The translations under genes and the position numbers were made by a program. Below, piece by piece: positions 15,296 to 42,268 of a DNA stretch of 43,268 nucleotides; positions within the stretch are counted from its first letter, which is position 1, and every line of letters starts with the position of its first letter. The notes beneath the pieces were generated by a model. That model did no database searches. It saw nothing but the letters and a program-made list of their open reading frames with translations, and was not told the origin of the DNA. The stretch is from the NCBI GenBank assembly GCA_002269645.1, contig NIVC01004526.1:1-43268 (forward strand). The letters run 5' to 3'. This DNA comes from Macrostomum lignano. Lineage: Eukaryota.

Positions 15296-18200
15296 CTATT
15301 TTCTAACGAGATCTCTTTGCTGCTGCTGCTCCGGCTTGAGCTCAAGCTCAACTAGCAGCGAGAAATGATCAGACGATATGTGCGGATGCGGACAGCCGAG
15401 GATGTTGTGCTCGGTGAACCAGGTCTCCGGGATCATGTCCAAGCAGCCGATGTTGCTGAAGTGGGCGCCGGTGAAGAAGATGTAGTCAATGACGCCGCGG
15501 AAATCGTACGTGTAGTTGGTGTACCGCATGCCGACCTCCTGGTCGTAGCAGCGAACCAGATTCAAATCGTGCTCAAGCAGCTCGGGATGGTGCTGAGACC
15601 GGTGCGGCGTCAGCTTGTCAAGGATGTTCTCGTAGCCCAGCTCCTTGAAGTCGGGATGGGACTTGTTGATCTTACCGGTGGCCAGGTATTCGAACACACC
15701 TGGGGTGAGCGAAAGGAAAAATACCCGCTTATGCACTTGTTTTTGAGTGGGCGCTTCACAAGCTTAAGGCATCACAAGCTCGGAGCCTCAAAAGCCTTCT
15801 GCAACTAAACAACTAAAAAACCCTCAGCTGTAAAGATCGTATTATACAAAGGAAATTTTTATGCATCTTCAAATATAACTAACAAATAACGGTATTAAAA
15901 TTCGCTACTTGCCTACTCTAGATTTCTACAAAACAGTAGACTATATCGAGTTTTTATTACTTTTGAATCGCGATACATTTATAAAATTAGCTTGATTAAA
16001 TGCACTGTGTGGCATCTTCTGGCCACTTGTACGAGTATGCTATTAGAATATTGGATAACTGGGGGGGGGGGCTCACCAGACTCCGGCAGCGAGTTGAAGT
16101 CGCCGCAGATGATCAACGGCATGCTGGTGACGTCAACAGATTCAACGCCTGGCCGCTGCTGCAGCATGTGATCTTCGATCTTCTTCCACAGTGCGGAGAG
16201 CAGCATGATGGACTGGATCACCTTCACGTCGGAGTACTCCGGGTCCCAGTGAATGTGCGCGGTGGACACCACCAGCTGGCGGCTCTGGGCCGACACCTCA
16301 TCCTTCACTTCAAAGATGGCCATCAGGGCGATGTTGTCCTTCACCATCACTCGGTTGATCATTTCGTGATTATCCTGGCAGATGGCGATTGAAGTGAGGC
16401 TGGATGACACAGGTAGGTGATTAGAGACTCGATGACACAGGTAGGTGATTAGAGACTCGATGACACAGGTAGGTGATTAGAGACTCAATGACACAGGTAG
16501 GTGATTAGAGACTCGATGACATAGGTAGGTGATTAGAGACTCGATGACACAGGTAGGTGATTAGAGACTCGATGACACAGGTAGGTGATTAGAGACTCGA
16601 TGACATAGGTAGGTGATTAGAGACTCGATGACACAGGTAGGTGATTAGAGACTCGATGACACAGGTAGGTGATTAGAGACTCAATGACACAGGTAGGTGA
16701 TTAGAGACTCGATGACACAGGTAGGTGATTAGAGACTCGATGACACAGGTAGGTGATTAGAGACTCGATTACACAGGTAGGTGATTAGAGACCCGGTGAC
16801 ACAGGTAGGTGATTAGAGGGAGACCCGGTAACACAGGTAGGTGATTAGAGGGAGACCCGATGATGACACAGGTAGGTGATTAGAGAAAGACCCGGTGACA
16901 CAGGTAGGTGATTAGAGGGAGACCCGGTAACACAGGTAGGTGATTAGAGGGAGACCCGATGATGACACAGGTAGGCGATTAGAGAAAGACCCGGTGACAC
17001 AGGTGGGTGATTAGAGGGATACCCGGTGACAATGGGTACGTCAGAAAGAACTTTCAAACATCTGAGCAGCCAACCTTGCAATCCTTCTCGTAGCGTTCAA
17101 CAGCCATGCGCGAGAACTCGATGACGTCCTCTTTGATGAGATTGAAGCGCTCTTTCTTCCAGAAGATGGCCACCCCGTCGACGTACTTGCTCTCGCTTGC
17201 CGACATCGTCTTGGCGCGGCTCTTCGCGCTAAAGATGCCGTCATAGCCGCTTTTGGCCAGCTCGGGCTTGAAGAACACCGAGAACTGCTCGGTCTCCACC
17301 TCCTGCGGGCGGGGGGAGGCTGGAGTGATGGGGCTGGCTGCATAGCAACTGAATTAATGCCATTTAACTGGAATAACCTTTGAACCAAATATCAATGAAA
17401 GGGTTTGGTCAATGCAGAGCGACCATAGGAAATGTGGCGACCTGACCACACCTGGGAATGTGGCGACCTGACCACACCTGGGAATGTGGCGACCTGACCA
17501 CACCTGGGAATGTGGCGACCTGACCACACCTGGGAATGTGGCGACCTGACCACACCTGGGAATGTGGCGACCTGACCACACCTGGGAATGTGGCGACCTG
17601 ACCACACCTGGGAATGTGGCGACCTGACCACACCTGGGAATGTGGCGACCTGACCAAACCTGGGAATGTGGCGACCTGACCACACCTGGGAATGTGGCGA
17701 CCTGACCACACCTGGGAATGTGGCGACCTGACCACACCTGGGAATGTGGCGACCTGACCACACCTGGGAATGTGACCAACTGGGAGTGTGGCGATCTGAC
17801 CACACCTGGGAATGTGACCAACTGGGAGTGTGGCGACCTGACCACACCTGGGAATGTGACCAACTGGGAGTGTGGCGACCTGACCACACCTGGGAATGTG
17901 GATCTTGCGGGGTAACAAACTGAGCACCTGGTAGTGTGGTGACCTGATCATCTGGAAATGTGGCGACCTGAGCACCTAAGGAAGGTAGCAAACCAACTGA
18001 ATAAAGCAAAGGCGCACCTGCAGACAGAGAATATCAGCCTGGTAGACACGAATCTCATCCATAATGCCGCGTCTCCGGTACTCCCACTGCAGCGCCCAGG
18101 ACGGACAGTAGGGGTACTGCTTCTTAGTGGCGTAGCCTTCGCACAGTACGTTGTAGCACATGAGCGTGAAGGCCATTCCATCGCTGGTGTCGTTGGGATT

Positions 18201-18992
18201 GCGCAGGTACCGCCAGTTTCGGCTGGGCGGCGGCGGCATGGCGAATCCTGTGGTGCGATTTCGGTTTTCTTAGAAATACAGGTACCATGGGCGATAGTTT
18301 AATCTAGGCAGGGGGACTTTAAGTTGAATAGATATGCAATTTCTACGATGGATTTCTAATTTGGATAAGCGGGGTTCTTAGAGAGAAGCTTATTCCATGC
18401 TATTCTTACTTGATGATAGGAGCTTTCTTAGAAATGATTTTCTCAGTAAATTTTCAGTAGTTTCAGTTTCAGTCTCAGTAAAAAATGCACAGATTGAACC
18501 AGCCAAGACTCTAATAATACCTTCGCTATCCAGAAACCAGCTGAGCATATTCTGAGTAGTCTCAGCATTGTACAGCTGAGAGATGTCCGGACTAAGCGGA
18601 TTGTGATTCAGATTAAGGGTGGTGAGCTGGAACAGGCGGCCAATCTGCATGGGCAGAGCTCTGATTTGGTTGTTCTGCAGGTAGAGCTCCTTAAGCTCAG
18701 TGAGTTCGCCAATCTCCGGCGGCAGAATCTTGATCATATTGAAGGACAGGTCCAGGTGAACGAGGTTCTTCAACTGGGAAATCTGGCTGGGGATGACGCT
18801 GATTTTGTTGTGTGACATGTACAGGTAGCGCAGGTAGGTCATGCAGCACAGGCCGGGCGGGAATATTTTCACATTGCCGACAATTTCCAGCTGGTCCCAG
18901 CAGGCCTTGCCGCCGGTTTCGCGGTCCTCCGCAGTGAGGAATTGCACCTGCCTGCTGGCCCGGCCCTGCTCCCATTTGCGCTTCCTGTGCAT
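15296..18992 (-). CDS. CNOT6: CCR4-NOT deadenylase subunit CCR4/CNOT6 (LRR plus EEP nuclease), multi-exon
   Basis: LRR exon (LYMSHNKISVIPSQISQLKNLVHLDLSFN). EEP motifs FTLMCYNVLC, YPYCPSWALQWEYRR, ADILCLQ|EVE, AHIHWDPEYSDVK, PLIICGDFNSLPESG, YTNYTYDFRGVIDYIF, PHPHISSDHFSL. Confidence 0.96.
16403..17030. repeat. 28-bp minisatellite, CNOT6 intron
   Basis: Unit gatgacacaggtaggtgattagagactc, diverging toward its 3' end. Confidence 0.95.
17428..17890. repeat. 26-bp minisatellite, CNOT6 intron
   Basis: Unit ggaatgtggcgacctgaccacacctg. Confidence 0.95.
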
Positions 18993-22102: not shown

Positions 22103-25100
22103 TCAAAGCCGATGTAGCCGCTTTTTCAAGCTAAGCCGCTGCTTCGGCGGCGGAGGCGGCTTCACTGGGCTGGTTTGCAGCAGGAACGGGCAGTGGCGGT
22201 ACAGGTGCCCGTCGGTCAGGCAGTTCAGGCAGAAGGCAAAGCCGCACTCGGTCTCCGGCCGGGTGCAACGCCCGATGCGGGTGTCCGGATCGACTCTGGC
22301 CGGCCAGCGGCAGCGCGGACACGGGCGCAGGCCCTGATTGTTTACCAGCCGCTTGCTCTCCTCAACGAATGCGTCGAACAAGCGGCCGCCGCCGCCGCTG
22401 CTGCCACCGACGCTAGCGGCTTCGCCGGCGTCGGCCTGAAAACTGTCAACTACGGCGACTGGCGGTGCCATCCTCAAAGCACGCCGCGGCGGCTGGCTGG
22501 GCCAAGCCGGACTGGATGTCGACGGCGCCGGCGACGTCTCCATGGCAACCGCCGCCGATAACTGCGCGTCACCGAAGGTCCCGCCGGCGCTAGGAACGAC
22601 AGTTGAAGCGGCCGACAAGCTGCTCCGACGGCTGGCGCCGGCGCCGCTTTCGTTTAGGCTGCGATTTTCTATAGAAGACGTCGACGAGCTGTCCAGCGTG
22701 GCTCGGCGATGTTTCCGACGCCGACGGCGATGATGGCGACGGCTAGTCGGGTCTTTGTCGGCTCTGCCGCCAGCCCCGACGTCGCTTCTGGCCGGGCCGC
22801 CACGGGTGCCGAATCTGGGGAGTCGGGAGAAAAAGTAATTTAGTTCAAAAAGGAATTCGACGTTCAAGAAAAGGTTCGGAGCCGCCACTTTGGATTGCCA
22901 AGATGTTATTGTGCAGTATCCAGGCACCACTATGGGATATCCAGACACCACTATGGGATATCCAGCCACAACTATGGGATATCCAGCAACCACTATGGGA
23001 TATCCAGGCACCACTATGGGATATCCAGGCACCACTATGGGATATCCAGGCACCACTATGGGATATCCAGACACCACTATGGGATATCCAGCCACAACTA
23101 TGGGATATCCAGCAACCACTATGGGATATCCAGGCACCACTATGGGATATCCAGGCACCACTATGGGATATCCAGCCACAACTATGGGATATCCAGCAAC
23201 CACTATGGGATATCCAGGCACCACTATGGGATATCCAGCCACAACTATGGGATATCCAGCAACCACTATGGGATATCCAGGCACCACTATGGGATATCCA
23301 GGCACCACTATGGGATATCCAGGCACCACTATGGGATATCCAGGCACCACTATGGGATATCCAGGCACCACTATGGGATATCCAGGCACAACTATGGGAT
23401 ATCCAGCAACCACTATGGGATATCCAGGCACCACTATGGGCTATCCAGTCATCACTATGGGGATGTCTAGACACACCACTATGGGATATCCAGGCACCAC
23501 TATGGGCTATCCAGTCATCACTATGGGGATGTCTAGGCACACCACTATGGGATATCCAGGCACCACTATGGGCTATCCAGTCATCACTATGGGGATGTCT
23601 AGGCACACCACTATGGGATATCCAGTCATCACTATCGGGATTTCTATGTACCACTATCGGATATCCAGTCATCATTATCGGGATGCCTAGGCACCACTAT
23701 GGGGATATGCAGGCGCCACTGTCTATCCGATATCCAGGCACCACTATATGGGGATATCCAGTCATCACTATGGGGATGTCCAGGCACTACCATAGAATTA
23801 TCCAGACGGGTTCATGAGAAATGCCCGCAGACGAATTGCCCGTCGAGATTTGCCCGCGAGTGAATTGCCCGCCCAGATTTTTCCCGCCGAGGTTTGCCCG
23901 CAATGCTTTTTTCCTGCAGCGCATTTGACCATGCGGCAGATTTTGCCTGCATTGCCTCCCAATGCTAAGTAAGTTGTAATAAAGAGATTTCCACAATCAA
24001 AACGTTTCGTTAGTAACTGCATATCAAATGCATATTTTTTGCGGGGGGGGGCAATGCAGTCAGAATCTAGCTGCCAAGCAGTAAAAAAGCATTGCGGGCA
24101 AACCTCGGCGGGAAAAATCTCGGCGGGCAATTCGCTCGCGGGCATTTCTCATACTCCCTATCCAGACACCACCATGGTGGTATCGAGGCATCACTAAAGG
24201 ATAGTCCAGGCTGCAGGCATCACTATAGGATAATTCAGGCATCACTATAGGATAATTCAGGCACCACTATGGGATATCCAGGCACCACTATAAGGACACC
24301 TAAACACCAATCGGGAATATAGAGGCGCCAATCGGGAATATAGAGGCGCCAATCGGGAATGTAGAGGCGCCAATCGGGAATATAGAGGCGCCAATCGGGA
24401 ATATAGAGGCGCCAATCGGGAATGTAGAGGCGCCAATCGGGAATATAGAAGCGCCAATCGGGAATATAGAGGCGCCAATCGGGAAGATAGAGGCGCCAAT
24501 AGGGAATATAGAGGCGCCAATCGGGAATATAGAGGCGCCAATCGGGAATATAGAGGCGCCAATCGGGAATATAGAGGCGCCAATCGGGAATATAGAGGCG
24601 CCAATCGGGAATATAGAGGCGCCAATCGGGAATATAGAGGCGCCAATCGGGAATATAGAGGCGCCAATCGGGAATATAGAGGCGCCAATCGGGAATATAG
24701 AGGCGCCAATCGGGAATATAGAGGCGCCAATCGGGAATATAGAGGCGCCAATCGGGAATATAGAGGCGCCAATCGGGAATATAGAGGCGCCAATCGGGAA
24801 TATAGAGGCGCCAATCGGGAATATAGAGGCGCCAATCGGGAATATAGAGGCGCCAATCGGGAATATAGAGGCGCCAATCTGGAATATAGAGGCGCCAGTG
24901 AAAAACATCAAGCAACAAAAAGCCCATTTACAACAGACAGACCTATCAACTAGCTGACGCCATCGGGAGCTGACAAGGCGCATTCGGGCGCAGGTGGCCG
25001 CATCAAAGCCGGCCCGCTTGAACAGGCAGTCCAACAGGAATCCGGAGCGGTCGTAGTCGTCCAGCTCAGCCAGGAAGTCCACCTGCTCTACGGCTATCCG

Positions 25101-25361
25101 GGTGCCAATTAAGCGCGGATTCTTCTGCCGCTGAGCATACCCGATCAGCCGCTTGAGTCCCTGCCTGTGCACCGGAGGCAGCCGGCTCATCATGTCGCGG
25201 AAGCAAAGCGACCCAGGTGTGGCGCTGCTAGCGGAGGAAATTTCGTTTTCCATCTCGGTTGCGCCGATGCCGGAGTCGGCAAACAGGCCGCTATCCATCG
25301 TCGGGGCGGAGCTGGAGTCGGCGGCGGCGGCGGCGGAGGCAGCAGGGGCGTCAGTGTCCAT
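22103..25361 (-). CDS. FBXO5: Emi1/Emi2/Rca1-like APC/C inhibitor (F-box, ZBR, RL tail), two main exons
   Basis: Exon 1 (~25361-24940): DSGLFADSGIG and LIGTRIAVEQVDFLAEL (Emi1 F-box signature). Exon 2 (~22815-22103): CPRCRWPA...CTRPETECGFAFCLNC zinc-binding region and C-terminal SLKKRLHRL RL tail. Confidence 0.85.
22915..23790. repeat. 21-bp minisatellite in FBXO5 intron
   Basis: Unit cactatgggatatccaggcac; degenerate continuation at 24155-24295. Confidence 0.95.
23814..24152. mobile_element. Foldback/MITE-like element (~340 bp) with long subrepeated inverted ends
   Basis: Left end atgagaaatgcccgc...gaggtttgcccgcaatgctttttt is mirrored by aaaaaagcattgcgggcaaacctc...gcgggcatttctcat; no convincing TSD. 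Confidence 0.7.
24305..24895. repeat. 21-bp minisatellite in FBXO5 intron
   Basis: Unit gaggcgccaatcgggaatata, about 28 copies. Confidence 0.95.
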
Positions 25362-34334: not shown

Positions 34335-34632
34335 TGGAACTGAGATCTTTGGAACTGAGATCCCTGGAACTGAGATCCTTGAAACCGAGATCCTTGGAAC
34401 TAAGATCCTTGGAACTGAGATCCTTGGAACTGAGATCCTTGGAACTGAGATCCCTGGAACTGAGATCCTTGAAACCGAGATCCTTGGAACTAAGATCCTT
34501 GGAACTGAGATCCTTGGAACTGAGATCCCTGGAACTGAGATCCTTGAAACCGAGATCCTTGGAACTGAGATCCTTGGAACTGAGATCCCTGGAACTGAGA
34601 TCCTTGGAACTGAGATCCTTGGAACTGAGATC
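34335..34632. repeat. 15-bp minisatellite truncated by the Polinton insertion
   Basis: Unit ggaactgagatcctt; the last unit stops after ggaactgagatc, immediately before AGTAGT. Confidence 0.95.
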
Positions 34633-34901
34633 AGTAGTATAGAAAAAGACGCTTCTAGACCCAGAGCACTTTTTTAATGACCGTTTTAAGGGTCTAGAGG
34701 GGGGACACGGGGGGTAAATAAAAAAACACATCTAAACACCATTAACACATCTAATCACCCATAATCACCCCTAACAATAAAAATCATTCCCAACACTTCC
34801 AAACACTCCCCAACACCCCCTCGCGTCCCCCCTCTTAAGACCTTACAAACGGCCATTAAAATAAGGTCTGATCTGTAAGCGTCTTTTTCTATACTACTAC
34901 T
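34633..34901. repeat. Terminal foldback: 22-bp perfect and ~85-bp imperfect inverted repeat around a nearly G-free loop
   Basis: AGTAGTATAGAAAAAGACGCTT (34633-34654) versus AAGCGTCTTTTTCTATACTACT (34877-34898); the pairing extends to the ...GAGGGGGGAC/GTCCCCCCTC motifs. Confidence 0.9.
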
Positions 34902-35551: not shown

Positions 35552-37159
35552 TTAGTTCGCTGATATTAGTTGGTTCTCATAAAACGAACCCAATATTTCT
35601 TCACCGTCCTTATCAGCAATTATATAGGTTGTAGGATTGGTATTTAAAACTTTACTGATAGTAAATTTCTCACTTATCTTCCAATATCCTTTTCTTCCTT
35701 TTTCAAACTTATCTTTCCATTTATAGATATAAACAGAATCACCAACCTTAAAAGATTTCTTTTTATTTTTTTCAAATTTTCCAAAAGTAACTTTAACGTT
35801 TTCAGGATTGTTATAAGCTTGTTGAGGAGTCATCTTTATCGCCGAATGATATGAATTGTTATAATCTTTCACTACGTCTGGTAATATTTTTACCCATTTT
35901 TGGTTACCATTAAGACTAAACTGAAACCACAATTTCTTACCTAAAGTTCGATTAAATCTTTCTATTAATGCGTTTTTGCTTTCTCCATAAATAGAATAAA
36001 TTTTATTAATATACTCCCCATTCGCGTCTTTTTTCCTTTCTTGTCCTTTTTCAAAATGATATAATTTATACATATGAGGATTGTAAAATTCTTTTCCTTC
36101 GTCAACACACAAACGATCGCTTTTTTCTCCAAGACTTCTAAAAGCAGCAGCAACATCCTCTCCTTTTTTGGATTTCAAAGGAACAGCCCACGCGTATCGA
36201 GTAAAACCATCTAATATGGTTAAGATATATTTATATCCTCTTTCGTTCGGCATCGACATTAAATCAGCATACCAAATTTCATTCTTTTTGAAGTTCATGA
36301 TTTTTCTATAAAATTTCGGTTTTCGATATTCTTTATGAAGAATCTTTGCCTCATCAGAACTTAACCCACCACCACTTAACAACAAACACTCAACACAATT
36401 ATTTCCATGTTGATTATAATTAATTCCCAAACCAAATTTAACTTTAGACTGCAAGATCTTTTTAACCATCCACCTAGTTAATTTTTGACCTACCGATAAT
36501 CCCTGCAAGTTATCTAATCCTTGAATCATTTTTTGATCGGCTTCATGTTTTAATCTTAATGCTTCCTCGGGTGTGTTCTTATCAGCATCTCTGTATGCTA
36601 AGTCATGATAGTATGCTAACCAATCAATTCCATTTATGGGAATTGAATCGGCTTTTGGGGTGTCATCAGGATTTAATCTCAAATCTAAGCGAGTGCCGGG
36701 TAGTTTACCCTCAATCTTTCGAAAGAGGCTGGAGCACACCTTAAGCGGCGATAATTACCGCCCATCTCCGTCTGCTCTCTGAACCTTCTCCTTATATTTA
36801 AAATACTTAGGAGCTTGGCTGCGCATTGCCACCGTGTCTTCAAGCTTGTTACCATCGAACCATAGGTTCGCGTGCAAAGCACGATTGGGAAGAGGAGTTA
36901 CCTCTGTTCCTTCAAAAGATTTCTCAATTGAAGTGGTACTTGAAGCTGTATGATGGGTTTCACGCAATTTGGAGATGTCGCCACAAATAGTGACTAGCAA
37001 GGACATTGCCTTCCTCACTCAGGCCACGGGTTAACCTGTGAAGTTCATTGATGGTAGGTGTAGTTCCCCTGTATATTTACCAGTAGTAAAGATTGGTGGT
37101 AAGCTTGTTAATCCTTTTTGAACATCTAACAATCCTCCTTCAAACACTATTTGGTTCAT
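35552..37159 (-). CDS. Parvovirus-type phospholipase A2 fused to retroviral-like (rve) integrase; two exons (37159-37034, 36700-35552; 424 aa) split by a group I intron
   Basis: Joined sequence ELHLPSMNFTG|PGTRLDLRL...PINGIDWLAYYHDLAY (PLA2 GPG loop and HD dyad). Integrase DDE motifs IWYADL, LCVDEGKEF, IERFNRTL. Typical Polinton integrase C-terminus FKVGD..V.I...F.KG...W...F.I.KV....PTTY.I.D..GEEI.G.FY. Confidence 0.88.
36701..37033 (-). ncRNA. Group I intron, subgroup IC1-like, 333 nt, ORF-less, terminal nucleotide A
   Basis: Minus-strand core motifs: P AAATTGCGTGAAA (36970-36958), Q AATGCGCAGC (36827-36818), R GTTCAGAGAGCAGA (36784-36771), S AAGGTGTGCTCC (36742-36731). P1 has a U-G pair at the 5' splice site. 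P3 CATCTCC/GGAGATG, P7 G-A(bulge)-GAGCA/TGCTCC, P9.0 AG/CT. Excision restores the frame and the GPG motif. Confidence 0.9.
36854..36885. repeat. Double-hairpin element copy 2 (inside the group I intron, P5 extension)
   Basis: AT-CGAACC-ATA-GGTTCG-CGTGC-AAA-GCACG-AT. Confidence 0.9.
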
Positions 37160-37709
37160 TTTTAATAGCCTTAAAAATACATGAAAGCACCAATTGTTTT
37201 GCAAACTCTTCAATGGTTGGTTGTTTAACTTTTTTATAGTTATTATCTACGCTAGTTAAGTATCTTTTATTTGTCCAATGTTCAGACTTTTTCATCTGAT
37301 CTTCATCTTTGTAACTAAACGAAGAAGCGGGAATGAAATGATCAATATCTAAATTTCCAGTATAATCTTTTGAAACATAATATTTTCTTGTGAAATTTAA
37401 CCAATCAAAAAAGAATTCTTTTGTGCAATCAAGATATGAGATATAGTCCTTGTCATTAAAATTTTTCAACGCCCAATTTATTCTATTTCTAATTAAAACA
37501 ATATGTTTGTAATTATCATCATTGTGATACTTGTTTTTTCTATATTCATTAAATTTATCTTTATTGTTTTTCATCCAAATAGTAGATGAGGTATTATGAC
37601 AAGATCGACAATCATTTCTAAATTTTTTTGAATCATTTCTCCAAAAATAAAATTCTTTCGTCATTGGTTTTTCTTGTTTACACTTAATACAAATCTTTTT
37701 AGGTTCCAT
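37140..37709 (-). CDS. Free-standing HNH-like endonuclease with N-terminal Zn finger (giant-virus/EndoVII-related type)
   Basis: CIKC...CRSC zinc finger; LDIDHFIP...HWTNKRYL...DNNYK gives the DH/N/N pattern. Confidence 0.72.
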   Translation of the reverse strand: MEPKKICIKCKQEKPMTKEFYFWRNDSKKFRNDCRSCHNTSSTIWMKNNKDKFNEYRKNKYHNDDNYKHIVLIRNRINWALKNFNDKDYISYLDCTKEFFFDWLNFTRKYYVSKDYTGNLDIDHFIPASSFSYKDEDQMKKSEHWTNKRYLTSVDNNYKKVKQPTIEEFAKQLVLSCIFKAIKNEPNSV

Positions 37710-37736: not shown

Positions 37737-38408
37737 TTAAACTCCAGTATGTCCAGCAGCTTTCGCAGCAGCTAAAACAAGTTTTCGCGGTGTTTTAAAT
37801 CCTTCTCCAACAGCTGGTTTGTTATTTATAGAATTAACAATCCTTTTATACAAGCTGGTATTTTTAGCAGCTCTTACTCCCAACTCATCATAAAAAATTT
37901 TTGCACTTACTAATTCATCCCTAGTATATAATTCAGGGTTAAATTTTACCCTAGGGTTCATAACAATATTATATGCTCCGCCCAATTCTCTATATAGTTC
38001 ATTTCGATTTTTATCAACTCCACCAATTCGATAATTATTATTACCTAAATCTGTCACAGCAATACTAGTTGGTGCAGCTCTCGGATATTCATCAACTCCA
38101 CCCCTTTCTGCAGCCCTAATCTCTGCAACTCTCAATTGAGCTTGATCAACATCATAAGCTGGCGGCTCATCCAAAATTTCATCCTCTTTTGGCTCCGTAT
38201 TTTTAGCAATTTTTTCCAGAAGATCTTTATCTGTTTTTTCTAGTTCACTAATTTTCCCAGTAATAGGATTAACAAAAGGAGCAGCAAATCTTTCACCCGC
38301 TAATTGTATTCCTAACTTTCTTTTTTGTAAATTTCTAACAAAATCAGAATATCTTTGCTTCTCTTTATAAATCGCTAACTCTCCATCAACGTCCATAAAT
38401 TGACTCAT
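37737..38408 (-). CDS. Putative Polinton core (pVII-like) protein
   Basis: 223 aa; VGEG followed by KLVLAAAKAAGHTG resembles the C-terminal motif of Polinton core proteins; divergently transcribed from the MCP. Confidence 0.4.
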   Translation of the reverse strand: MSQFMDVDGELAIYKEKQRYSDFVRNLQKRKLGIQLAGERFAAPFVNPITGKISELEKTDKDLLEKIAKNTEPKEDEILDEPPAYDVDQAQLRVAEIRAAERGGVDEYPRAAPTSIAVTDLGNNNYRIGGVDKNRNELYRELGGAYNIVMNPRVKFNPELYTRDELVSAKIFYDELGVRAAKNTSLYKRIVNSINNKPAVGEGFKTPRKLVLAAAKAAGHTGV

Positions 38409-38442: not shown

Positions 38443-39914
38443 ATGGCTGAAACAAAAACTATGTGGAGTGATAAATTTCATTTCAAAAAGCACCGACAGT
38501 ATATTAATGAGGTCAGAGCAAGAGATTTAAATTATACCCTACCAACAAGTGATAATTCAAATAACTTTACTACTGGAACGGTAACTTTTGACATCGGCGC
38601 AACCAACACTATATTGGATATGAAAAATGCGTTTTTCCGCGTTAGATGGTTGTATACTAGAAATGATGGAACTGCTCTTGCAGCCGGAGATATCGCAGAT
38701 CGATCCGGAATAATAATAGAAAATGATTGGTTTTATAAATGTTTTTCCCAAGCTCAACTAACTGTTAATGGTGCTGAGGTTGAGACATCATCAAACCCCG
38801 CAGAGATTAATGGAGTTTTGAAACATTTAAATTATACTTATTTATCAAAACAAGTTGGTGATAATGTTGGGTGGATGCCGGATAAAGGTAACGGTCAAGC
38901 AGTAGTTTTCCCTAATGTACAAAACGCAGCTGGTGCAGATACTGCAGCTCTAATTGCTTACCTTAATACAAACATAGTTCCAGTTGTAACCACTATGACT
39001 AATACAAAAGATATTAATACTGGTTTTATAGATCGTCAGAATAAATTCCCAGTCGTGGTTTTAACCACAGCAACAGCATATGAGCAGGACTTTTCAATCT
39101 TCCCGCTATTTGGGTTCTTCTCACCAAATCGGGTATGGAAAGGATTAAAATTTGGGATACAGTTGCAAATATCTGGTGGATATCAGCCTAGGATACTTTA
39201 TGGAACCTCAATTTCAACCGATATAGCAGTTCGTATAGATTCAATTCAATTAGTCGTACCAACTATTGAGGTAACAGCCCCACTTTTAAAACACATCGAT
39301 AATCAGTTAACGCATGATCAGGAAATATTTTATTTGAATCGTCGACATTTTATGCGAACCATTAATAACAATCAGGATTCATTCCAGTGGCAAATACTGA
39401 CATCAAAACGTCGGGTGAGATATATTTTTGTTTGGTTTAAAATAACAAACAGAAGGAGTAAAAGAGCAAATGGGGATTTATATTGGCTTCAATCGGGTGA
39501 CATAGCAGCACAAGCAGCTACCGCAACAGACAACGCAGTTGCTGCAATTAACGAGTTTAATGTTCAGAATATCCGCCTGCAGGTTGATGATCAATATTAT
39601 CCGGTTAAAGACCCCCTAAATTTAAATATAGCAAATATAATGTTAATGATTTTATAAAATATTATCAAGATTATGCCAAAAATGAAGCATATGCCGTCCC
39701 TCAGTACACACCCACAGAGTTTCTAAACATTCATCCAGTGGTTGTTTATGATCTAACGGCACAGAAAGAAAACGTAGCCAATATTGGACTTAATTATATG
39801 TTAGAGATTAATAAAACCGGTAATCAGGCACTTGACGCCCACGTATTGTTTCTAGAGGAATATATGTCAATTGCTAAAGCTGATGGCACGATTGTTCGGG
39901 ACGCGCCGCTGTAA
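38443..39914 (+). CDS. Double jelly-roll major capsid protein (frameshift near 39636)
   Basis: TFDIGATN..LDMKNAFFRV; CFSQAQLTVNGAEVE; RVRYIFVWF; VQNIRLQVDDQYYP. A second frame continues DFIKYYQDY...EFLNIHPVVVYDLTAQKE to TAA at 39912-39914. Confidence 0.88.
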
Positions 39915-39965
39915 AATGAGTGCAGGTCTCCGACCGTCGCGCCTATTTAAATTATTTCTTTAAAA

Positions 39966-40767
39966 ATGGTAAAGGCAAAACACGATAAGATATTTCCAAA
40001 TGATCCTTTTCTTTGTTTAGTAATTGGTGGGTCGGGTAAAGGAAAAACACACTTTGTTTATGACCTGATAACAACCGATGGAATGCTAGACTATAATAAT
40101 TTAATAATTTATACTAACAAACCTAGAATAAAATATTATGAATTTCTTAAACATGGATTAAAAAACAAATTAAAAAAAGATGTCTTGTTTAGAATGTTAA
40201 GAGCATATGAGCAATATGAGGATGATGACGAACCGCGATTTAATCTAGCAGACATTGAGGATTTATGTAAAACAATGGCACAACAGCCAGAAAACATCAC
40301 CGATCGCCCCGAAGGGTCGCGGACTTCGTCCGATCGAGCTCCAACTGTTAGAGTATCAACCCGATTAGCCTATGATCAAATTCCAAAACATGATAAAACA
40401 CTAATTATTTTTTGATGATTGTATTAATGACGGGGATCAAGAATTACAAAAGGAAATTTTTGTTAGTGGTAGAGGAGATGGAATCGGAGCTTTTTATCTA
40501 ACACAGTCCTTTAGAGAATTAGAATCGATTATAAAAAAGAATGCAAGTTGTTGTGTAATGTTTGATTTAGATAATTATGATTTACAAAATATACACGCTA
40601 GATTTAATCCCGGGTTGGATGCAAAACCATTTAAAAGTATGTGTAAAAAAATTTGGGATGATAGCCAATACAAACATATTTATATCAATCCGAGGTTAGA
40701 AAGGAAACATAGAATTTTAACAAATTTGATAAAAGAAGATAATGAGGAAGAAGAGGATCGTGCATAG
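39966..40767 (+). CDS. A32/FtsK-like genome packaging ATPase (one extra T in the T run near 40410)
   Basis: Walker A LVIGGSGKGKT; Walker B LIIF|DDC across the frameshift; downstream GRGDGIGAFYLTQS and IKKNAS motifs. Confidence 0.9.
40303..40334. repeat. Double-hairpin element copy 3 (in frame within the ATPase)
   Basis: AT-CGCCCC-GAA-GGGTCG-CGGAC-TTC-GTCCG-AT. Confidence 0.85.
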
Positions 40768-40845
40768 CACGCGTACCTTCGTACGATCGCCCCATAGGGT
40801 CGCGAACTTCGTTCGATCGTGCATAGCATGCGGACTTCGTCCGAT
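40757..40845. repeat. Tandem trimer of double-hairpin elements (six hairpins)
   Basis: AT-CGTGC-ATA-GCACG-CGTAC-CTTC-GTACG-AT-CGCCCC-ATA-GGGTCG-CGAAC-TTC-GTTCG-AT-CGTGC-ATA-GCATG-CGGAC-TTC-GTCCG-AT. Confidence 0.9.
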
Positions 40846-40863
40846 TAATTTCCCACTATAAAA

Positions 40864-41637
40864 ATGACTACAAATTTAAATACTATAAAACAATTGGTAG
40901 ATCGAACTAATTCAAAATTTAGTACAACATTACAGTTTATAATGACAACCAGCGAGCAACGGATTCAATTGCGCGATCCATTACAACTTGATCAAAGCCT
41001 AAGTTATCAAATAGGTTTAATACTATTTTCGGTTTTCAACATGCCTCAATTAATTAATGCAACAAATAATCAATTTAGATATTCTAAAGATTCCGGAGCC
41101 AATTGGACAACATTTAGCGTTAACCCAGGAGCGTATAGCTATACTGATTTGAATGCTTATATAGAAGGAGAATTAACAACTAATGGTGATTGGGTAGCAG
41201 GAGCAATTGTTATAGGTGTTGATTTACCGTCTGGCAGATTCACACTATCACTAGGATCCGGATATCAGGTTGATTTCACAATTGCAAATTCACTCAGAAC
41301 CATACTTGGATTTAATTCCCGAATAGTTACCACATCAAGCACCGGTGATACAGTTGGAAATATAGAGGGTGGAGTAAATACAATTAATATAACAACCGAC
41401 ATTTCAAACGGTGGTTATATAACAGACGATAACGGAGTTTTGGTTCAACGTGGAATTATTTATTCAATCCCATTTCTTGCTGTTCCAATTGGAGAGAAAA
41501 TGATTGTATCACCTCAAACCCCAATATATTACCCATTAAATCAATATAATGTTCAATCAATTTATATTAGGATTGTAGATGAAAGCGATAGATTAATAAG
41601 TTTTGGTGGGCAGTCAATAACAGTATTTTACGTATAA
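40864..41637 (+). CDS. Minor capsid (penton, single jelly-roll) protein
   Basis: LRDPLQLD...YQIGL; F.VNPGAYSYTDLN; SLRTILGF; INITTDISNGGY; PIYYPL...VQSIYIRIVDESDRLISFGG. Confidence 0.85.
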   Translation: MTTNLNTIKQLVDRTNSKFSTTLQFIMTTSEQRIQLRDPLQLDQSLSYQIGLILFSVFNMPQLINATNNQFRYSKDSGANWTTFSVNPGAYSYTDLNAYIEGELTTNGDWVAGAIVIGVDLPSGRFTLSLGSGYQVDFTIANSLRTILGFNSRIVTTSSTGDTVGNIEGGVNTINITTDISNGGYITDDNGVLVQRGIIYSIPFLAVPIGEKMIVSPQTPIYYPLNQYNVQSIYIRIVDESDRLISFGGQSITVFYV

Positions 41638-41658
41638 AACAGGTTTAGTACTGTAAAA

Positions 41659-41868
41659 ATGGGTAATCGAACAACATGTTCGCGTGCAAAGCACGATAAT
41701 AATAATAATTTAATAAAAAAACAATCAGAAAAAGTTAAAAAAGCTGAAGATAATTACGAACTAGAACTAGCAAAATTAAGGCAGTTACAAGCTGATAAAA
41801 TAAGAAAGGAATTGTTAAAACCCACACCTACGAAACTAACTAAAACCAAGAGTTTTTCAGGAACATAA
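41659..41868 (+). CDS. Small basic, coiled-coil hypothetical viral protein
   Basis: 69 aa with TAAAAATG start; Lys-rich. Confidence 0.45.
   Translation: MGNRTTCSRAKHDNNNNLIKKQSEKVKKAEDNYELELAKLRQLQADKIRKELLKPTPTKLTKTKSFSGT
41666..41697. repeat. Double-hairpin element copy (in frame in ORF 41659)
   Basis: AT-CGAACA-ACA-TGTTCG-CGTGC-AAA-GCACG-AT. Confidence 0.9.
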
Positions 41869-41869
41869 A

Positions 41870-42268
41870 ATGACCATGACGTGGGATGATTTTAAACAAA
41901 GATATGGAACAGACACAACAAGCAATATCGAATTAACAAATTGGGCGAGGCAGTTAAAAATAAAACCATTTAGATGTGTTATGCGAGATGAGATAAAAGA
42001 CTTACCACAATATGGATCTTTCATTGTTAATATTGAAACAACAAAAGAAAATGGTGTTCATTGGTCAGCAGTTTATTCAAAACCAAAACTTGTTTATTTT
42101 TTTGATTCATACGCGCTTCCTCCGTTACAGGAAATAAAAGACAAATTTAATCATACTAAAAATCGTTTATGTGGAGATCATCACGAACAGTTTCAAACCT
42201 TTGATAAAAGTTATTGCGGACAAGCGCGTTATATTTTTTATATCGACTTTCGAATGAAGCTCGTGTAA
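41870..42268 (+). CDS. Adenain-like (C5) cysteine protease
   Basis: FIVNIE....GVHWSAV (His), YFFDSYALPP (Asp), QFQTFDKSYCGQ (Gln, Cys); the C-terminus may be frameshifted. Confidence 0.88.
   Translation: MTMTWDDFKQRYGTDTTSNIELTNWARQLKIKPFRCVMRDEIKDLPQYGSFIVNIETTKENGVHWSAVYSKPKLVYFFDSYALPPLQEIKDKFNHTKNRLCGDHHEQFQTFDKSYCGQARYIFYIDFRMKLV

Follow-up and report, generated by a model that had tools for sequence, protein, structure and literature searches.

The original papers on collaborative homing in phages are reportedly those of Zeng (2009) and of Bonocora and Shub (2009). In the texts available for one such case, the endonuclease F-CphI is encoded beside the psbA intron of phage S-PM2 (PMC6083498, PMC3984707), and the DHHRN family is defined there by a DHDH motif with flanking CxxC pairs (PMC6083498). 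Among viruses of eukaryotes, Bodo saltans virus (BsV) carries HNH-bearing group I introns, and one HNH was proposed to act in trans near an intein (accessible part of PMC5871332). As described in the text available for PMC12220804, Polinton-like viruses (PLVs) of protists contain ORF-less RF00028 introns of 309-376 bp, as well as free-standing HNH and GIY-YIG genes, with cryptophytes, a rhizarian and a chlorophyte as hosts of the intron-bearing PLVs. Collaborative homing in Polinton-like viruses is presented as a hypothesis in the accessible portions of two reports (PMC11296320; bioRxiv 2026.10.13.758929), and a 2013 review, in the part available, described nuclear group I introns as confined to rDNA of microbial eukaryotes (PMC3679873). 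A literature search outside subscription journals, Repbase and supplements (e.g., Tables S11 and S12 of PMC12220804) turned up no description of an intron within the PLA2-integrase gene of a Polinton, nor of a nuclease present in Polintons in both free and intronic form.

The window analyzed here (the whole stretch of 43,268 nucleotides) is one contig of a 764-Mb eukaryote assembly, in which a Polinton-like element, i.e., an integrated DNA virus, extends from about position 34632 to the contig end. The features are as follows:

34632..34898, no strand assigned: end of the element, a terminal segment that contains an inverted repeat (10 other copies cease to match it at about 34632).
35552..36700, minus strand: exon 2 of the PLA2-integrase gene, encoding the remaining PLA2-like domain and an rve integrase (Pfam rve E=6e-8; Phospholip_A2_4 weak, E=0.07).
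36701..37033, minus strand: ORF-less group I intron (intron 1, I1) of 333 nt, final base A (RF00028, 60.9 bits).
37034..37159, minus strand: exon 1 of the PLA2-integrase gene, 42 codons with the ATG at 37159 (read from the sequence; collinear with uninterrupted natural alleles L054, L107 and L140).
37140..37709, minus strand: free-standing gene for a Zn-finger plus HNH-type predicted nuclease, 189 aa (PHROG 1035, conserved residues, AlphaFold, BFVD and slot alleles).
37737..38408, minus strand: conserved 223-aa gene upstream of the slot that the HNH gene occupies (upstream in most family A copies).
38443..42268, plus strand: Polinton virion module with a capsid-like ORF, an A32-like ATPase, a minor-capsid-like ORF and a protease-like ORF (ORFs).

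On the minus strand the order is thus the 223-aa gene, the 189-aa HNH ORF, exon 1, the 333-nt intron and exon 2. The end of the HNH gene overlaps the start of exon 1 by 20 nt and its stop lies 106 nt from the intron insertion site, close to the values of about 20 nt and 110 bp given in an earlier note on this DNA. That note had proposed collaborative homing, and the layout it relied on, a group I intron that lacks an ORF, in a gene adjoined by a free-standing nuclease gene, is indeed present, as in the phage cases (from their available texts). The protist PLVs, so far as the text available for PMC12220804 describes them, likewise have ORF-less RF00028 group I introns in viral genes, and free-standing HNH genes also occur in PLVs; unlike here, their intron lies upstream of the capsid gene with no endonuclease tied to it, whereas the present intron splits the PLA2 domain of the PLA2-integrase.

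The copies compared with the window fall into two families. For the co-occurrence counts in family A, 160 distinct loci were fetched, the HNH search having scored all 133 candidates and the exon-2 search 150 of 491. Family A, to which the window belongs, comprises 138 loci, two without the slot region, leaving 136 readable copies; the sister family B comprises 36 hand-picked loci (35 readable) and is about 58% identical to family A in the PLA2 region. Identification of the element as a Polinton/adintovirus is based on rve and Pox_A32 in family A, on rve, a DJR-like domain and a D5-type primase in family B, and on a common terminus. The Pox_A32 match (E=1e-6) comes from copy L171, in which the first two virion ORFs are longer than in the window. 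The DJR-like domain was detected in the capsid gene of the sister family; for the capsid of family A, Pfam gave no match. The family A capsid, minor capsid and protease labels are presumptive, taken from position and characteristic motifs. The window ends before any protein-primed DNA polymerase B gene, and pieces found in L174 carry what are presumably polB motifs, with no polB Pfam match and with a Pfam Endonuclease_7 match. This true Endonuclease_7 domain (Pfam E=1e-7) lies in the putative N-terminal polymerase piece of the sister family (L174:5574-7037), separate from the slot HNH.

Several other properties of the element and its surroundings were recorded. An inverted match (34633-34714 versus 34817-34898) lies inside the terminal segment. 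In the sister family (L174:7841-7915; L185-L187; L148), the terminal inverted repeat appears to extend over the beginning of the PLA2-integrase gene, with the result that pieces of exon 1 turn up again at the ends of elements or close to them; in L148 and L186 these pieces are accompanied by the first 40 nt of the intron. The intact sister-family PLA2-integrase gene matches PF08398 (E=9e-9). The 223-aa upstream gene has no Pfam or PHROG match, and an alternative allele of it with an unrelated middle occurs in L047, L115, L107, L118, L197 and L198. Host genes are located at 15979-18992 and 22103-25361 of the window amid many tandem repeats; CCR4/CNOT6-like host exons in the window match CNOT6L (E=2e-21) better than they match the yeast protein (E=4e-9), so the host is probably an animal, and another host gene is presumably F-box/IBR-like, judging by its motifs.

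The Zn-finger plus HNH-like ORF described by the earlier note was located from 37709 to 37140, with CxxC pairs at residues 7-10 and 34-37 and the motifs DIDHFIP (D123, H124), HWTN (N147) and DNNYK (N156). It is not a chance reading frame, since the HNH query has 130 matches in the genome and dN/dS values of 0.22-0.60 (11 allele pairs) point to purifying selection. By the rule of the counting script, an ORF of at least 150 aa is kept at 74 of 99 HNH loci, two of the 74 not being HNH. Residues D123, H124, P127, N147, N156 and K159 are each at least 90% conserved in 59 sequences. A profile built from 18 alleles retrieved 57 homologues among 2638 candidates; in the 51 that were aligned (six short-coverage matches being left out), D123 is found in 50, H124 in 51, N147 in 50 and N156 in 48, with P127 and K159 also within 48-51 of 51. 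The elements of an HNH (beta-beta-alpha-Me) motif, namely, a catalytic His after an acidic residue, a structural Asn, and a metal-binding Asn or His, are therefore all represented.

The structural check called for by the earlier note pointed in the same direction. An AlphaFold model from the alignment reached pLDDT 94 (39 for a single-sequence fold), with a predicted beta-beta-alpha fold formed by strands 120-124 and 148-152 and helix 153-159, all at pLDDT >90. The best BFVD matches were mimivirus L246 (7e-10), an unnamed protein and, third, the BsV "Intron encoded endonuclease" (7e-9), and 32 matches had E<=0.001, many of them named HNH. The closest predicted folds are thus mimivirus L246-like and BsV intron-encoded endonucleases; in contrast to the present element, those belong to giant lytic viruses, with 20-25% identity, and the accessible part of PMC5871332 describes no exchangeable slot. 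Compared with PDB folds, the model matched mostly HNH domains at weak scores (Foldseek E>=0.06; VIA Z<=4.7). Sequence searches of Pfam and PDB gave no match, and a homologue search from the single sequence found none, whereas the alignment-based search succeeded. The matches of an atlas search, taken as a lead only, were unnamed viral clusters (0.95-0.96) and HNH clusters (0.87-0.89). PHROG 1035 matched residues 4-163 (E=9e-7; two other HNH alleles, E=2e-11); its label, "endonuclease VII", is a family annotation only. The slot ORF is thus an HNH-type protein and a predicted nuclease.

Membership of the F-CphI/EndoVII-like family, which the earlier note had brought up, is not supported. The central DHDH motif of the DHHRN (F-CphI/Endo VII) family is absent, its place being taken by DHFIP here and by DHIIP in most homologues, and the arrangement of CX2-4C before and CX2C after DHDH is not found, both CxxC pairs being N-terminal and neither flanking the active site; by its motifs, the HNH is not a DHHRN protein. 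L163, an HNH-like match next to a group I intron, was also rejected as an orthologue: there (L163:510-1930) the intron splits a phage tape-measure gene, and all that its 375-aa ORF has in common with the slot HNH is the CxxC module at the N-terminus.

Intron 1 exceeds the RF00028 gathering score of 50, and its predicted folding surpasses that of 99 out of 100 shuffled sequences (z=-3.0). It has a P3-P7 core scoring above gathering, a U-G pair at the 5' splice site and the G-C guanosine site in P7. As the earlier note had stated, its 333 nt contain no nuclease ORF, the sole ORF of at least 80 aa being read-through of the ribozyme core. The P1 and P7 strands are nearly invariant in 107 copies, as are the core elements, while peripheral elements vary. 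Intron boundaries were set by uninterrupted alleles and by 29 copies in which this same final position is a G. The terminal G usual in group I introns is missing in the window, where position 36701 is A; among 111 family A copies of intron 1, 82 end in A and 29 in G, while all nine family B copies end in G, with P7 strands identical in the A-ended and G-ended groups. Assembly error was rejected as the source of the terminal A, which 82 copies have, as was an in-frame 3' splice site at a G 9 nt earlier, which lies inside the P9 stem, the G-ended copies marking the later position. In corallimorph mitochondria, the group I intron ND5-717 also lacks a terminal G, and its exons are correctly ligated in vivo (available text of PMC6545197); as described there, however, ND5-717 is organellar, obligatory and vertically inherited, whereas here A and G ends coexist (82 and 29 copies) and splicing is predicted. 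The A-ended form, which includes the window's group of near-identical copies, had been overlooked by the earlier note, and the uninterrupted form of the junction it named (ACAGGT followed by CCCGGC) has no match in the genome.

Exon 1 is conserved at second codon positions, which together with the near-invariant ribozyme core suggests that splicing is still under selection. The integrase could also be made without splicing, from an internal ATG in exon 2 (36529) that opens the entire integrase core. Eight contig runs guessed to be RNA contained no joint matching precise intron removal, which says nothing on splicing, and their 890-nt skips have the letters of the natural intron-less allele. 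A second intron (intron 2), found at L080, L053 and 22 other loci, has the same 5' site as intron 1 and a different core, with a below-gathering Rfam match (E=2e-6 on a 401-nt stretch) and no detection in a wider Rfam scan. Its P2 and P5 periphery resembles that of intron 1 (75-80% over nt 35-149), suggesting a chimeric ribozyme in which an intron-1-like periphery is joined to a different catalytic core. The most canonical-looking 3' site of intron 2 puts exon 2 out of frame in 24 of 24 copies.

The slot before the PLA2-integrase gene proved to be occupied in every readable family A copy, either by the HNH (99 copies, including remnants in L047, L098 and L115) or by an unrelated PD-(D/E)XK nuclease ORF (37 copies); no plain empty slot was found among the 136. 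The two occupants have only about the first 10 and last 40 nt in common. The family A PD ORF encodes 167 aa with a PD-(D/E)XK-like motif (Pfam RE_Eco47II, E=4e-4), and the related PD of L157 in family B scores 30.1 bits against the RE_Eco47II cutoff of 25.9, so that the alternative occupant, too, is a predicted nuclease. The HNH behaves as an optional gene, as free-standing homing endonucleases do, being replaced by PD in 37 of 136 copies and mostly deleted in L047 and L115. An apparent third slot ORF in these last two copies was rejected as a nuclease: it is a piece of the alternative upstream-gene allele that replaces most of the HNH. The HNH frame continues into exon 1 in four copies (L046, L061, L074 and L106), and short insertions in the overlap of slot and exon 1 (window 37153-37156) are common among copies and read contigs.

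Intron 1, intron 2 and no intron are found, respectively, in 79, 17 and 3 HNH copies and in 30, 7 and 0 PD copies, i.e., all four combinations of two nucleases and two introns occur. No association between the type of intron and the type of nuclease was seen (Fisher p=0.80, the copies not being independent), and the pattern persists after similar copies are collapsed. The three intron-less HNH copies probably represent two haplotypes. One of them, L107, combines an intact HNH with an uninterrupted junction in cis, and the 12-nt core of this junction is also found in intron-bearing copies; L054 differs at the base preceding the insertion site. The co-occurrence anticipated by the earlier note is therefore borne out in that 96 of 99 HNH copies have an intron, and fails in that three HNH copies lack one, 37 intron-bearing copies carry PD instead, and two different introns adjoin the HNH. 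An exclusive nuclease-intron pair is not supported by these counts, and, because all combinations occur and L107 exists, neither is a strict one-to-one partnership.

In the sister family, the same insertion site has the standard layout of intron homing, as judged from its sequences. Eighteen of 35 readable copies carry a closely related intron at the family A site, and in 17 of these the PD gene lies in the P2 loop of the intron; the exception, L199 (G000:C1464), has an ORF-less intron with a tandem-repeat insertion and no nuclease nearby. The other 17 copies are intron-less, all with one common site sequence different from that of intron-bearing copies, and neither nuclease was found in the stretch fetched for any of them. 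No HNH was found at the slot position before the sister-family gene, and an HNH inside an intron was never seen in this genome. Homing-type genetics at the site, as proposed by the earlier note, is thus upheld by a nuclease-bearing intron in the sister family.

PD also appears to reside inside introns in metagenomic relatives: 9 of 21 metagenomic PD homologues have C-terminal tails matching the translated intron core (E<=1.2e-6, three introns), compared with none of 57 HNH homologues. The intronic PD ORF (L147, L154-L161; P0058-P0074) has no stop before the ribozyme and continues for 50-70 codons into P3-P6, the metagenomic homologues using two different frames for this. Searches of viral and metagenome contigs gave no related locus for either PLA2-integrase or PD. 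In a 27-row PD tree (midpoint root, two "intronic" labels set by eye, tail-less rows of unknown context), the free-standing PD and the intronic form of family B come out as sisters (88/84) within a clade that includes intronic relatives (91/85), both supports being below the starred level. The simpler reading is that the free-standing PD probably left the intron for the slot.

Population signals were examined over 95 non-identical family A copies. Differentiation (Fst) by intron type is 0.42-0.60 within about 40-60 nt of the insertion site and mostly <0.1 past 120 nt, whereas Fst between HNH and PD copies is at most 0.10 on either flank. Diversity at fourfold sites, from a sample of 45 of the 95 copies, is 0.19-0.33 within about 120 nt of the site versus 0.07-0.15 in the integrase core. 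When PD and five HNH classes are distinguished, linkage to nuclease class amounts to 0.20-0.21 in exon 1, 0.12-0.13 in the upstream gene and 0.03-0.12 in exon 2 (0.03-0.09 in its distal part), the exon-1 excess being small and the shuffles ignoring relatedness. All 12 copies of the 205-aa HNH class adjoin intron 2, and three chimeras derived from it adjoin intron 1. Family B has an Fst of 0.40 over the final 30 nt of exon 1, but values of 0.34 (exon 2, nt 121-180) and 0.65 (upstream of the start) occur there as well. These site-centered patterns fit short conversion tracts with turnover of the target site; they are weak evidence, because frequent ordinary recombination combined with P1 pairing constraints could also produce them and the copies are related.

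Read from sequence, the locus consists of an exchangeable slot, two unrelated occupants, two introns at one site and a PD gene placed inside the intron of the sister family. The explanation favored here, regarded as having about an even chance of being right, is a loose collaboration in which each of the two slot genes would encode a homing endonuclease directed against rival alleles in their PLA2 exons, repair carrying along the slot and the neighboring intron. The predicted HNH would occupy the slot and act as a free-standing homing endonuclease that cuts the PLA2 exons of rival Polinton alleles close to where the intron inserts; when the break is repaired from the carrier, the slot would be copied together with whichever intron adjoins it. 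The PD gene would have moved out of the intron into the slot, the HNH would compete with it for that slot, and the intron would be a loose passenger of either nuclease; HNH and PD are likely rival selfish genes that help the intron to spread. Counted in favor were the HNH residues and fold, the BsV match, the never-empty slot, PD in the P2 loop, the metagenomic tails, the intron-type Fst peak, the fourfold diversity, the exon-1 linkage and the association of the 205-aa class with intron 2. Counted against were L107 in cis, the low HNH/PD Fst, the Fisher result, the lack of an intronic HNH, the weak PDB matches, the moderate support for PD nesting, recombination plus P1 constraints as an alternative, and the presence of an intron in 133 of 136 family A copies, which makes empty targets rare. 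A fuller version is doubtful and is advanced tentatively: a phage-style homing arms race at one codon junction, where PD left the intron, the HNH contests the slot, each drives the adjoining ribozyme, and the commonest ribozyme splices with a terminal A.

The alternative that survives best, while still unlikely, detaches the HNH from the intron: it would cut other alleles, such as those with PD, within the upstream gene or at the edge of the slot, and the intron, with which it would have no connection, would be spread by PD, in cis or in trans from the sister family. This would agree with the HNH in three intron-less copies and beside two different introns, with the failure to find an intronic HNH form, with PD alone being directly tied to the intron, and with an HNH that stays mostly open and diversifying though the intron is nearly fixed. 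However, nuclease-class linkage is slightly higher on the intron side than upstream, silent diversity is highest at the intron site, and the 205-aa class is tied to intron 2 in all 12 copies, observations that speak for the loose collaboration instead. Less likely still is a non-homing viral role for the HNH, in genome processing or packaging or in attack on competing virus or host DNA, with the mosaic arising from ordinary recombination. Purifying selection on the HNH, its relatives being widespread free-standing viral genes of unknown function, and the packaging or restriction role proposed for a PLV HNH in the available text of PMC12220804 are consistent with such a role, but a protein of unrelated fold replaces the HNH in 37 copies, the HNH is largely deleted in L047 and L115, and it was not found at the sister family's position, the replacement being an intron-type homing gene. 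Strict collaborative homing, in which the HNH cuts the uninterrupted junction, the intron protects its carrier and both move as a unit, is the least likely of these readings: the phage-like geometry (PMC6083498 and PMC3984707, as available), the intron in 96 of 99 HNH copies and the deviating base of L054 would suit it, but L107 combines an intact HNH with an uninterrupted site, all four nuclease-intron combinations exist and Fst between nuclease types is at most 0.10.

With the loose collaboration preferred, the locus is, on present sequence evidence, a putative variant of phage-type homing in a eukaryotic virus, and a richer one than first read. As in the phage cases, so far as their available texts describe them, a related arrangement has the nuclease inside the intron at the same site. 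Unlike those cases, the carrier is an integrating virus of a eukaryote, two unrelated nucleases and two introns meet at one locus in all combinations, the nuclease is an HNH rather than a DHHRN protein with cleavage only predicted, and the PD tree leans toward exit from the intron, not entry. Across >170 examined copies in one genome, this single site is found in intron-encoded, free-standing, ORF-less and empty form, so that the direction of nuclease-intron assembly and competition between nucleases become testable with natural alleles. The locus further offers natural A-ended and G-ended versions of one ribozyme, as well as two uncharacterized candidate site-specific nucleases, and it implies that Polinton copies meet and exchange DNA often.
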